A stretch of 64,000 nt of DNA, taken from NCBI RefSeq assembly GCF_965641715.1, contig NZ_OZ282453.1, one strand, 5' to 3'. This stretch comes from Escherichia coli. Lineage in GTDB: Bacteria; Pseudomonadota; Gammaproteobacteria; Enterobacterales; Enterobacteriaceae. Positions 436 to 63,447 of the stretch are shown piece by piece. Under the pieces are notes generated by a model. The model made no database searches and was not told where the DNA came from. It saw only the letters and a program-made list of their open reading frames with translations. The translations under genes were made by a program, and so were the position numbers. Each line of letters opens with the position of its first letter. Within the stretch, counting starts at the first letter, position 1.

Positions 436-1773
436 ATGAACACTTCACCGGTGCGAATGGATGATTTACCGCTTAACCGTTTTCACTGTCGAATTGCTGC
501 GCTCACTTTCGGCGCGCACCTGACCGACGGTTATGTTCTCGGCGTCATTGGTTACGCCATTATTCAGCTTACGCCCGCCATGCAACTGACGCCGTTTATG
601 GCGGGAATGATCGGCGGCTCGGCGCTCCTTGGTTTGTTTCTTGGCAGCCTGGTTCTTGGGTGGATCTCCGACCATATTGGTCGGCAAAAAATCTTCACCT
701 TCAGCTTTTTGCTGATTACGCTCGCTTCGTTCTTGCAATTTTTTGCCACCACGCCAGAGCATCTTATTGGACTGCGCATTTTGATCGGCATTGGTCTGGG
801 AGGCGATTACTCAGTAGGTCACACCTTGCTGGCTGAATTTTCCCCGCGCCGCCATCGCGGTGTTTTGCTGGGCGCATTCAGCGTGGTGTGGACCGTAGGC
901 TATGTGTTGGCAAGTATTGCCGGACATCACTTTATTTCCGAAAACCCGGAGGCCTGGCGCTGGCTACTGGCATCGGCAGCTCTGCCCGCGTTGTTGATTA
1001 CGTTATTACGCTGGGGAACGCCAGAATCGCCACGCTGGCTACTGCGCCAGGGGCGTTTTGCAGAAGCTCACGCTATCGTGCATCGCTATTTTGGTCCCCA
1101 TGTTTTACTGGGCGATGAAGTGGCAACGGCGACCCATAAACACATCAAAACCTTGTTCTCTTCGCGCTACTGGCGGCGCACGGCGTTTAACAGCGTCTTC
1201 TTTGTCTGCCTCGTAATCCCATGGTTTGTGATTTATACCTGGCTGCCAACTATCGCCCAGACTATTGGACTGGAAGATGCGCTGACTGCCAGCCTGATGC
1301 TTAATGCGTTGTTAATTGTGGGCGCGCTGCTGGGATTAGTTCTGACGCACCTGCTGGCACATCGCAAGTTTTTGCTGGGAAGTTTTTTGCTGCTGGCGGC
1401 AACGCTGGTAGTGATGGCCTGTTTGCCTTCCGGCAGTTCATTAACGCTACTGCTTTTTGTTCTCTTCAGCACCACCATTTCGGCAGTCAGTAATCTGGTG
1501 GGCATTTTGCCTGCGGAAAGTTTTCCTACTGACATTCGCTCGCTGGGCGTCGGTTTTGCCACCGCCATGAGTCGGTTGGGGGCGGCGGTAAGTACTGGCC
1601 TGCTGCCGTGGGTGCTGGCGCAGTGGGGAATGCAAGTCACCTTATTGCTCCTGGCAGCAGTGTTGTTGGTTGGTTTTGTTGTAACCTGGCTATGGGCACC
1701 AGAAACCAAAGCACTCCCGCTGGTGGCGGCGGGAAATGTAGGAGGTGCGAATGAACATTCTGTTAGCGTTTAA
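436..1773 (+). CDS. ygcS: MFS-family transporter (445 aa)
   Basis: ORF 364..1773; internal ATG at 436 preceded by GAAGGGG RBS gives MNTSPVRMDD N-terminus; hydrophobic multi-helix protein. Confidence 0.85.
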   Translation: MNTSPVRMDDLPLNRFHCRIAALTFGAHLTDGYVLGVIGYAIIQLTPAMQLTPFMAGMIGGSALLGLFLGSLVLGWISDHIGRQKIFTFSFLLITLASFLQFFATTPEHLIGLRILIGIGLGGDYSVGHTLLAEFSPRRHRGVLLGAFSVVWTVGYVLASIAGHHFISENPEAWRWLLASAALPALLITLLRWGTPESPRWLLRQGRFAEAHAIVHRYFGPHVLLGDEVATATHKHIKTLFSSRYWRRTAFNSVFFVCLVIPWFVIYTWLPTIAQTIGLEDALTASLMLNALLIVGALLGLVLTHLLAHRKFLLGSFLLLAATLVVMACLPSGSSLTLLLFVLFSTTISAVSNLVGILPAESFPTDIRSLGVGFATAMSRLGAAVSTGLLPWVLAQWGMQVTLLLLAAVLLVGFVVTWLWAPETKALPLVAAGNVGGANEHSVSV

Positions 1774-2530
1774 AGCCGAACCGGATGCCGGAATGCTGGC
1801 GGAAAAAGAGTGGCAGGCGGCGGCTCAGGGTAATAGCGGACCGGATGTTTCGCTACTGCGAAGTTTACTCGGTGCTGATGAACAGGCTGCCGCCGCGCTG
1901 CTGTTGGCGCAGAGAAAAAACGGTACGTCGATGTCTTTAACCGCGTTGAGCATGGGGGATGAACGGGCGTTGCACTGGCTGCGCTATCTCATGGCTCTTG
2001 GGTTTGAGGAAGCTGTATTGTTGGAGACGGCGGCAGATCTGCGCTTTGCGCCGGAATTTGTCGCTCGCCATATTGCCGAATGGCAGCGTCAGAATCCGCT
2101 GGATCTGATAATTACCGGCTGCCAAAGCAGCGAAGGGCAGAATGGGCAAACGCCATTTTTGCTGGCGGAAATGCTGGGCTGGCCCTGCTTCACCCAGGTG
2201 GAGCGTTTCACTCTCGACGCGCCGTTTATCACCCTCGAACAGCGTACTGAACATGGGTTGCGTTGTTGCCGGGTTCGCTTGCCCGCGGTGATTGCCGTGC
2301 GTCAGTGCGGTGAAGTGGCCTTGCCAGTACCGGGAATGCGCCAGCGAATGGCTGCGGGGAAAGCAGAAATTATCCGTAAAACTGTTGCTGCCGAAATGCC
2401 AGCGATGCAGTGTCTGCAACTGGCAAGAGCAGAGCAACGACGTGGAGCGACGCTGATTGATGGGCAAACGGTAGCAGAAAAAGCGCAAAAGCTATGGCAG
2501 GACTATTTACGCCAAAGGATGCAGCCATGA
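1751..2530 (+). CDS. ygcR: Electron-transfer flavoprotein beta-subunit-like protein (259 aa)
   Basis: ATG at 1751 preceded by GGAGG; N-terminus MNILLAFK; followed with ATGA overlap by alpha-subunit-like gene. Confidence 0.85.
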   Translation: MNILLAFKAEPDAGMLAEKEWQAAAQGNSGPDVSLLRSLLGADEQAAAALLLAQRKNGTSMSLTALSMGDERALHWLRYLMALGFEEAVLLETAADLRFAPEFVARHIAEWQRQNPLDLIITGCQSSEGQNGQTPFLLAEMLGWPCFTQVERFTLDAPFITLEQRTEHGLRCCRVRLPAVIAVRQCGEVALPVPGMRQRMAAGKAEIIRKTVAAEMPAMQCLQLARAEQRRGATLIDGQTVAEKAQKLWQDYLRQRMQP

Positions 2531-54652: not shown

Positions 54653-57543
<2,891 letters not shown>

Positions 57544-57611
57544 CGGATTTTATCCTGTTATCAGTAGGGTAGATGTAGTTGTTATCAGTCGACGTGACGG
57601 AAAAATGCCGA

Positions 57612-57717
57612 TGCTGAAACGGAATTAAGAAACCGGTTTCACAAAATCATGAATAGTTGTCACCAAATAAGCAAGAGAGTTAATTGTTCATTTTTTATAT
57701 TTGTGAAACCGGTCACC
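57612..57717. promoter_or_regulatory. ascF promoter region with two LacI/GalR-type operator-like palindromes (candidate AscG sites)
   Basis: GAAACCGGTTTC perfect 12-bp palindrome at 57629..57640 and GTGAAACCGGTCAC at 57704..57717; also GCTGAAACGG at 57613. Confidence 0.45.
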
Positions 57718-57802
57718 TGAATATTTTTCCCGCCGATTGCGCAAGGACAATCGGCAAACGGTGCAGTACACTGCGTTGATTGCGTGTAAAGGGATGAAAA
57801 TG

Positions 57803-58813
57803 ATGACGACGATGCTGGAAGTGGCGAAGCGCGCCGGGGTTTCAAAAGCGACCGTTTCCCGCGTGCTTTCAGGTAATGGCTACGTCAGCCAGGAGACTAA
57901 AGATCGCGTGTTTCAGGCGGTAGAAGAGAGCGGTTACCGCCCAAATTTGCTGGCCCGCAATCTGTCGGCGAAAAGTACCCAGACGCTGGGGCTGGTAGTG
58001 ACTAACACGCTTTACCACGGCATTTATTTTAGTGAATTACTGTTTCATGCCGCGCGAATGGCGGAAGAGAAAGGGCGGCAGTTGCTATTGGCAGATGGTA
58101 AACACAGCGCCGAAGAAGAGCGCCAGGCGATTCAGTATCTGCTGGATTTGCGCTGCGACGCCATTATGATTTACCCGCGTTTTTTAAGTGTGGATGAGAT
58201 CGATGACATCATTGACGCGCACAGTCAGCCGATAATGGTGCTTAATCGCCGCCTGCGCAAAAATAGCAGCCATAGCGTCTGGTGCGATCATAAACAGACC
58301 AGCTTTAACGCCGTGGCAGAGTTGATAAACGCCGGGCATCAGGAGATTGCTTTCCTTACTGGCTCGATGGATTCCCCCACCAGCATTGAACGTCTTGCCG
58401 GGTATAAAGACGCGCTGGCGCAGCATGGTATTGCTCTCAATGAAAAACTTATCGCTAACGGTAAATGGACGCCCGCCAGCGGGGCCGAAGGTGTAGAAAT
58501 GTTGCTCGAACGTGGGGCTAAATTTAGCGCGTTAGTTGCCAGTAACGACGATATGGCGATAGGTGCGATGAAAGCGTTACACGAGCGCGGCGTAGCGGTG
58601 CCAGAGCAGGTGTCAGTTATCGGATTCGATGATATCGCAATTGCCCCCTACATCGTTCCGGCGCTCTCCAGCGTAAAAATTCCGGTGACTGAGATGATTC
58701 AGGAAATTATTGGACGGCTGATTTTTATGCTCGATGGCGGGGATTTCTCACCGCCGAAAACCTTCAGCGGAAAACTGATCCGCCGCGACTCACTCATTGC
58801 TCTTTCGCGATAA
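57803..58813 (+). CDS. ascG: LacI-family repressor of asc operon
   Basis: ORF 57737..58813; likely start near 57794-57803 giving MTTMLEVAKRAGVSKATVSRVLSG (HTH); periplasmic-binding-protein-like effector domain. Confidence 0.93.
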   Translation: MTTMLEVAKRAGVSKATVSRVLSGNGYVSQETKDRVFQAVEESGYRPNLLARNLSAKSTQTLGLVVTNTLYHGIYFSELLFHAARMAEEKGRQLLLADGKHSAEEERQAIQYLLDLRCDAIMIYPRFLSVDEIDDIIDAHSQPIMVLNRRLRKNSSHSVWCDHKQTSFNAVAELINAGHQEIAFLTGSMDSPTSIERLAGYKDALAQHGIALNEKLIANGKWTPASGAEGVEMLLERGAKFSALVASNDDMAIGAMKALHERGVAVPEQVSVIGFDDIAIAPYIVPALSSVKIPVTEMIQEIIGRLIFMLDGGDFSPPKTFSGKLIRRDSLIALSR

Positions 58814-62313: not shown

Positions 62314-63447
62314 CTACACCGGCAACGTTTTCAACAATCCAAATGCCTCTTTCATCCGATCCTCACTTACCACAAAGGCGCGAAGCTGGTCAGCATCGTC
62401 AACGCCGCGCGCCACCATTCCCTGGCGTTCGGTATTAATCTGCCAACGTAAATCCTGACGCTGGGTTTCGCCTGCCAGATGCAGCGGTAATTCCGGCGTT
62501 TTGATTTTCACCAGCATCGCCGGTAGTTTCAGCGGCGTGTTATTGCCGAGAAGATTTTTTGCCAGCACCATCGCGCTAAGTTGAATCGGCTGCAGGAACG
62601 GCAGTACCTGACCGTTAATTTCCGCGCAATCGCCCAGCGCGTAAATATCGGCATTACTGGTTTGCAGATAACTATCGACGCAAACGCCGCGATTAATCGT
62701 CAGCCCGGCGCGTCGTGCCAGGGCGGTTTCCGGGCGCAGTCCGGTGGCGGCAATTACCGCATCCACTTCGATACTGCGCTGGCGGTCCAGCGTTGCCAGA
62801 ATGCCAGAATCCGTTTTTTCCAGCCCATGCAACTGAGATTTCAACAGCAGATGAACGCCCATCTCCGTCAACCGATGCTGCAAGCGGCTGCTTACTTCCG
62901 GTGGCATTAACGACGCCAGAATACTGGTAGCGTTGTCGATTAGCGTAACCATTTTGCCTGCACGACAAAAATCCATCGCCAGTTCGCTACCAATCAAACC
63001 ACCGCCAACAATCAACACGCGTCGGGCATCCCGCAGTTGCGTTTCACAGGCGCGATACTCTTGCTGACTATTTAACGTCAGCATTAACTCACGCCCAGGC
63101 ACAGGCGGGACAAAGGCACTGGCACCGGTTGCCAGTACTAGCTTGTCGTATTGCCACTGATTATTCTGGCTTTTCACCACACGGGCTTCGGCATCGATAT
63201 CCGTCACCCAGGTGTGCGGAAACAGGTGCAGATTAAACTGCTCGGCAAATTCACCCGCCGTCTGGCGGGTAAGGTCATCGGCACGTTGCCCCTGACTGAT
63301 AACATGGCTGAGGTCAGGTTTGTTGTACTCATCCATGCTGTCGGCGGCAATCAGGGTTAATGGAATAGTGGCGTCCTGTTTGCGAATATTTTTCACCAGT
63401 TGGCGGGCGGCGAAGCCCGAACCAATGATCACAATGCCGTTACTCAT
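62314..63447 (-). CDS. norW: Nitric oxide reductase FlRd-NAD(+) reductase (377 aa)
   Basis: 377 aa, N-terminus [23 protein letters not shown]; FAD/NAD Rossmann motifs. Confidence 0.95.

Follow-up and report, generated by a model that had tools for sequence, protein, structure and literature searches.

The ascF-ascG control region of an Escherichia coli genome: an AscG operator and a CRP box with an AscG-like centre

The asc locus and its distribution

The window, by which we denote the entire 64-kb stretch of Escherichia coli DNA that was analysed, contains the asc genes, with a 259-bp intergenic region (57544..57802) separating the divergently oriented ascF (minus strand) and ascG (plus strand). 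The whole interval corresponds to a known and characterised control region, that of the cryptic asc operon (arbutin/salicin/cellobiose; beta-glucoside), and ascF is the target gene under AscG repression. The following genes are encoded at the locus:

54653..56077, minus strand: ascB, 6-phospho-beta-glucosidase, 474 aa from the K-12-equivalent start (NCBIfam NF007356, 1090.6 bits, profile positions 1-474 of 474)
56086..57543, minus strand: ascF, PTS cellobiose/arbutin/salicin EIIBC, 485 aa (NCBIfam NF007311 equivalog, 1026.9 bits against a cut-off of 722, full length)
57803..58813, plus strand: ascG, intact LacI/GalR-family repressor, 336 aa, with GalR, GalS and LacI as top family matches

The name of ascB agrees with the RefSeq annotation of K-12, and its mechanically called open reading frame runs on to 56089. 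The ascG product is identical to K-12 AscG at 334 of 336 residues, with no difference in residues 1-60, the DNA-binding domain, and the intergenic region shows three base differences from that of K-12 MG1655, none of them inside either of the two sites described below. Thousands of RefSeq-annotated E. coli genomes carry the same gene names at this place. Relative to the K-12 ascG-ascFB control region (AscG regulon; AscG entries of RegulonDB and RegPrecise), the window contains the same locus and nothing of substance differs; it represents a strain variant, which over this stretch is nearest to E. coli 88-3493 and strain C. The first-pass annotation had described the interval as the ascG-ascF divergent region with an intact ascG and had presumed the operon to be repressed. 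Gene matches and RefSeq names bear out the location, the 336-aa product with its K-12-identical DNA-binding domain bears out the integrity of ascG, and the presumption is supported, since with ascG intact repression is the expected state. The further statement that some lineages have a disrupted K-12 ascG was garbled, as reference K-12 ascG is an intact coding sequence; it is through insertion of IS186 into ascG that transcription of the operon becomes activated (PMC3505978, Table 1). In RegPrecise-based work, AscG has been treated as a regulator of Enterobacterales with an effector specificity for cellobiose-6P.

The control region was matched in 4,698 of 5,426 complete E. coli genomes. The lack of a match in the other 728 (~13%) agrees with ascG being an accessory gene, as described in published reports, which found it to be rarer in extra-intestinal pathogenic (ExPEC) strains. 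In E. coli WL164 (NZ_CP128642.1), only the final 70 query bases are matched, and beside ascG there is an annotated IS110-like IS621 transposase; in this strain, the control region together with the ascF side seems to have been replaced or interrupted.

Two palindromic elements with different patterns of conservation

The intergenic region contains two palindromic elements, neither of which was assigned a strand:

57628..57641, no strand: site 1, primary AscG operator, AGAAACCGGTTTCA, which reads TGAAACCGGTTTCT in the ascF direction; centre 57634.5, at about +5.5 of the predicted ascF start
57702..57717, no strand: site 2, CRP box, TGTGAAACCGGTCACC; centre 57709.5, at about -70.5 from the predicted ascF start; TGTGA-N6-TCACA matched at 9 of 10 positions

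Site 1 agrees with the 14-bp dyad-symmetric AscG consensus TGAAACCGGTTTCA, which has a central CG, at 13 of 14 positions. Its core, GAAACCGGTTTC, is a perfect 12-bp palindrome at exactly 57629..57640, as the first-pass annotation had stated. In the ascF direction, the site follows a conserved -10 candidate at 5 nt and precedes the ascF ATG by 91.5 bp. Its reverse complement, TGAAACCGGTTTCT, has been published as the 'AscG binding sequence from PascF' (PMC8667592, Table S3), which confirms the earlier designation of this palindrome as a probable AscG operator. When placed at +1 of a synthetic promoter, this site conferred strong repression by AscG, and at -61 AscG had almost no effect (PMC8667592).

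A scan of species-representative genomes yielded 80 loci with relatives of AscG (66-99% identity) and 79 usable intergenic regions; the set used for the footprint and the weight matrix comprised 80 sequences, including the window. The loci are from Escherichia, Citrobacter, Enterobacter, Klebsiella, Raoultella, Kluyvera, Lelliottia, Leclercia, Phytobacter, Pseudocitrobacter, Aeromonas, Sodalis and others, and the divergent ascG/ascFB layout is kept in all of them. With <=3 mismatches to the consensus allowed, site 1 was found in 79/79 usable intergenic regions, representing more than 15 genera. Across the orthologues, 10 of its 14 columns do not vary, and this near-invariance fits the AscG helix-turn-helix AGVSKATVSRVL, which is itself invariant in 80 orthologues. 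Among six diverse E. coli strains, site 1 varies at its first base only, which is A or G. At K-12 prpR-prpB, the reported second AscG target, no 14-mer within three mismatches of TGAAACCGGTTTCA was found; the stretch examined contains four direct TGAAAC(G/A) half-sites spaced 10-12 bp apart (at 2006, 2016, 2028 and 2040, within 2006..2046). To judge from these sequences, AscG would have to recognize prp either in a mode other than the palindromic one or through a more degenerate site, and prp provides no yardstick for the degeneracy of site 2.

Site 2 combines two motifs. An AscG-like 14-mer, TGAAACCGGTCACC (57704..57717, centre 57710.5), matches the AscG consensus at 11 of 14 positions and is almost concentric with the CRP box, from which it is offset by 1 bp. 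The string reported for this element by the first-pass annotation, GTGAAACCGGTCAC, had been placed at 57704..57717 and is located one base earlier, at 57703..57716. In Escherichia, the six-base spacer of the CRP box is AACCGG, which provides one perfect AscG half-site (TGAAACC) and a poor one (GGTCACC), the latter being the right half with two core mismatches. According to PMC3505978, which cites Ishida, Kori and Ishihama (2009, J Bacteriol 191:6136), there are two sites for AscG at ascFB, and an AscG site adjoining a CRP site has been noted upstream of another operon in RegPrecise-based work.

The reverse complement of 57702..57717, GGTGACCGGTTTCACA, is included among the high-confidence CRP ChIP-seq sites of ETEC H10407 and assigned there to ascG/ascF (PMC4287617, Table 1). 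This 16-mer is present as a single, intergenic copy in the 2-kb ascG-ascF stretch of H10407, where ascG is intact. ascF is a known target of CRP, which was also recovered by genomic SELEX (PMC3105977). The reported centre of the ChIP peak (3132920; PMC4287617) is ~210 bp away from the motif, which RefSeq places at 3133124..3133139, and would be located within ascG. The same study nonetheless classes the peak as intergenic, and the mismatch is likely a coordinate or version offset.

A CRP-type box, yGTGA-N6-TCAC/TCGC, occupies the position of site 2 in all 80 sequences. Its arms are nearly invariant (78-80 of 80 sequences have G, G and A of GTGA as well as T, C, A and C of TCAC), and its four central columns are variable. 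Among the 79 orthologous regions, an AscG-like site 2 (<=3 mismatches) was absent outside Escherichia and Kluyvera-type loci (TGAAACCGATCACA), the latter of which have the spacer AACCGA and an AscG that is 75-76% identical. At the CRP position, the AscG weight matrix scores Escherichia at 11.0 bits and the Kluyvera group at 4.4 bits, with no other sequence above -2.9 bits; only the Escherichia (four, including the window) and Kluyvera-type (six) sequences score above the background tail, with ~68 of 80 below it. Conservation thus extends to the arms but not to the AscG-like centre, and marks site 2 as primarily a CRP site, on which the resemblance to an AscG operator has been overlaid in particular lineages. 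The first-pass annotation had taken this second palindrome for a probable AscG operator; the near-complete consensus match, the ChIP-seq listing and conservation of the arms only identify it first of all as a CRP box.

Within the species, site 2 is identical in the six diverse E. coli strains, with polymorphism concentrated between the sites, and both sites are kept in these strains as well as in three further Escherichia loci. The first-pass annotation had named a lack of conservation across strains as an argument against its reading. Both sites are kept in the Escherichia loci sampled; the AscG-like character of site 2 does not extend beyond Escherichia and Kluyvera.

The weight matrix was built from 80 orthologous site-1 sequences, the window's own site 1 among them. 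Of the 63,987 positions scored in the window, site 1 ranks first (20.7 bits) and site 2 second (11.0 bits). The third-best match, TGGCACCGGTTGCC (63120..63133, 9.3 bits), is probably due to chance and lies inside an ORF of 377 aa (62314..63447, minus strand). By its position, this ORF is probably norW.

Predicted promoter geometry and the proposed control of ascF

The following promoter elements are predicted for the intergenic region:

57669..57674, minus strand: putative ascF -35, TTGCTT, 17 nt upstream of the -10; its TTG (57674..57672) is invariant in 80 of 80 sequences
57646..57651, minus strand: putative ascF -10, CATGAT, from the phylogenetic footprint; A at position 2 in 80 of 80 sequences, T at position 6 in 71 of 80
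57744..57774, plus strand: candidate ascG promoter, -35 AGGACA (57744..57749) and -10 TACACT (57767..57772), 17 nt apart

In the ascF direction, the footprint consists of the CRP box, an A-rich tract, TTG, a 17-nt spacer and cAtgAT, with site 1 following five bases on. From this order, the start of ascF is predicted near 57639, which would make site 1 span about -2 to +12 and would centre the CRP box at about -70.5. A scan of 57450..57900 for consensus promoters and terminators returned no sites, for which reason the promoter was derived from conservation and geometry; the ascF hexamers are too weak for such a scan, as expected of a CRP-dependent promoter. The distance from the start of site 1 to the start of the CRP box is 73-74 nt in 75 of 80 sequences and 64 nt in four of 80. 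In the latter four loci the CRP box is 10 bp closer, which would move its centre to about -60.5, and the unit of -35, -10 and operator is otherwise unchanged. Given the predicted start, the CRP box stands at a helical-phase-correct distance from the ascF promoter, and its displacement by one helical turn in the four loci would be precisely what class I activation permits.

The candidate -10 of ascG is contained in a block, GTGCAGTACACTGC (57761..57774, about 30-40 nt upstream of the ascG ATG), that recurs in 77 of 79 orthologous loci, those of Aeromonas included, with <=2 mismatches and about 24-25 nt ahead of the ATG. This block is near-palindromic (GCAGT-AC-ACTGC), and its conservation exceeds what a -10 element alone would need. 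The CRP box is ~69.5 bp from the candidate ascG promoter, a distance that is variable among genera. An Rfam scan of 57300..58000 for RNA elements gave only a chance match to Oskar OES (20.5 bits against a gathering threshold of 46, E = 0.78), which was rejected.

We consider it probable that the region combines one strong AscG operator with one CRP activator site, as opposed to two equivalent operators, and that ascF is controlled by occlusion at site 1, activation by CRP and weak competition by AscG. An AscG dimer bound to site 1 would block RNA polymerase at ascF initiation; that this would be the main step of repression is supported by the published repression from +1 (PMC8667592). Once AscG is removed, cAMP-CRP at site 2 would act in a class-I-type manner to make the weak ascF promoter work. 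In Escherichia, AscG can probably also occupy site 2 weakly and compete with CRP there, which would add a second, minor layer of repression. Weak binding is plausible because one half-site is perfect, and the two proteins would compete because their footprints are almost concentric. The occupancy of site 2 by CRP in vivo with ascG intact indicates that AscG does not fully exclude CRP, and is not tightly bound there, under those conditions. The sequence identities, the pattern of conservation, the integrity of ascG, and the published action of AscG on the site-1 sequence and occupancy of site 2 by CRP are established; for this scheme we infer the promoter hexamers, the start site, the mutual exclusion of CRP and AscG and the extent of AscG occupancy at site 2.

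It is conceivable, if on balance doubtful, that Escherichia and, independently, Kluyvera had the spacer of their CRP box rewritten to AACCGG and AACCGA, respectively, which would turn the 16-bp element into a combined activator and auxiliary repressor site and provide AscG with an anti-activation mode. If so, anti-activation by AscG, which the other genera would lack, may be part of the reason for the 'cryptic' state of asc in E. coli particularly. As a by-product, the rewritten spacer would yield a 14-nt inverted repeat with the primary operator, which can flip a 54-bp promoter cassette and would thereby redirect the ascF promoter toward ascG. The two arms of this repeat were read from the sequence:

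57632..57645, minus strand: left arm of the inverted repeat TTTGTGAAACCGGT, perfect, 14 nt
57700..57713, plus strand: right arm of the inverted repeat TTTGTGAAACCGGT, perfect, 14 nt

In E. coli TUM1226 (NZ_CP135719.1), at 1490..1590 of the stretch examined (corresponding to 57632..57713 of the window), the ~54-bp segment between the sites has the opposite orientation to that in the window and K-12. This arrangement was seen in one of 4,698 genomes, with break points located within the 14-nt repeat. Both sites are intact in TUM1226, and the predicted ascF -35/-10 faces ascG. The inversion may stem from genuine recombination between the operator-like repeats or from an error of assembly.

Alternative readings and relation to known systems

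Site 2 might be bound by CRP only, with its AscG likeness being incidental or the result of short-patch conversion from site 1, and with repression exerted by site 1 alone. This would account for the absence of the AscG-like centre from the majority of genera in which AscG, site 1 and the CRP box are retained, for the two core mismatches in the right half-site and for the occupancy of site 2 by CRP in vivo despite an intact ascG, and it agrees with the near lack of effect of AscG at -61 of the synthetic promoter (PMC8667592). However, a random spacer would read AACCGG in only ~1/4096 of cases, and the occurrence of the near-identical AACCGA in Kluyvera, with its considerably diverged AscG, together with this rarity points to selection. 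Site 2 is furthermore invariant in all sampled Escherichia, whereas the sequence between the sites is polymorphic, and a CRP-only site would not agree with the two AscG sites given for ascFB in PMC3505978. We regard a site 2 devoted to CRP as rather unlikely.

The first-pass annotation had proposed that both palindromes are AscG operators positioned to allow looping, with two bridging AscG dimers enclosing the ascF promoter in a loop, as LacI O1-O3 and GalR OE-OI do. The two sites are indeed the top two AscG-matrix matches in the window, share the perfect 14-nt inverted repeat and flank the predicted promoter, and PMC3505978 gives two AscG sites for ascFB. The centres of their 14-mers (57634.5 and 57710.5) are 76 bp apart, which is within the phase of 75.5-77.5 bp; LacI loops are stable in vivo at spacings of 75.5 and 77.5 bp. 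The distance is thus compatible in phase with a loop, whereas the ability to form a dimer of dimers and selection on both operators were not found. AscG aligns to positions 6-332 of the 358-position LacI profile and then ends, without a C-terminal tetramerisation tail, and the published LLhA/Q55A chimera (LacI-DBD/AscG-core) showed a <2-fold dependence on operator spacing, which its authors set in contrast to the two natural AscG sites. In addition, a spacing of 75-76 bp is kept in ~65 loci that lack a second AscG-like site, so that the geometry of CRP and promoter suffices to explain it, and site 2 itself has a poor second half-site and is occupied by CRP in vivo. The proposal that the sites are positioned for looping is thus unsupported, and we consider a loop bridged by AscG improbable; a GalR-style, HU-assisted contact is possible.

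That both motifs are chance palindromes without a regulatory role has practically no likelihood: perfect 12-bp palindromes are about as common in the 64-kb window as expected (17 versus ~15.6) and near-consensus matches show no excess over shuffles, but the pair is far beyond chance, with the two top-ranking positions side by side in one intergenic region beside the cognate repressor gene, and such a reading is ruled out by the conservation of site 1 across all usable loci and genera, the matrix ranks and the published functional data for both sites.

The asc control region, the AscG consensus, the statement of two sites and the control of ascF by CRP are already present in the literature and in regulatory databases, and the present analysis carries little weight as a discovery. 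Its useful result is a correction, namely that the second 'operator' is primarily a CRP site and that the spacing reflects the geometry of activator and promoter and not a repressor loop. What the comparison of genera newly adds is modest: only in Escherichia and Kluyvera does the CRP box carry the AscG-like overlay, which forms a perfect 14-nt inverted repeat with site 1. This confinement bears on the silence of the operon in E. coli.

The AscG consensus TGAAACCGGTTTCA is also what we take to be the operator of PtxS, a LacI-family regulator of Pseudomonas. Should this assignment be correct, two distantly related members of the family use the same operator sequence. PtxS and AscG differ in regulator, effector and target genes, and the shared sequence is a likeness in DNA recognition at the level of the family, not a sign of a shared system. 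This palindrome occurs in four papers on how Pseudomonas regulates gluconate and 2-ketogluconate metabolism, one of which deals with PtxS-PtxR.

At class I CRP promoters, CRP is centred near -61.5, -71.5 and so on. The asc region resembles these promoters in having its CRP box at ~-70.5, as counted from the predicted start, in its weak hexamers and in natural variants in which the box is exactly 10 bp closer. It also resembles lac O1/O3 with the lac CRP site, as both have a strong operator for a LacI-family protein over the start and a weaker, operator-like site upstream in the region of the CRP site. In contrast to LacI, which is a tetramer and for which O3 acts by looping, AscG is without a tetramerisation tail and the chimera with the AscG core is without spacing dependence. 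Furthermore, lac O3 is adjacent to its CRP site, whereas the weak site of asc is nearly concentric with the CRP box, at an offset of 1 bp.
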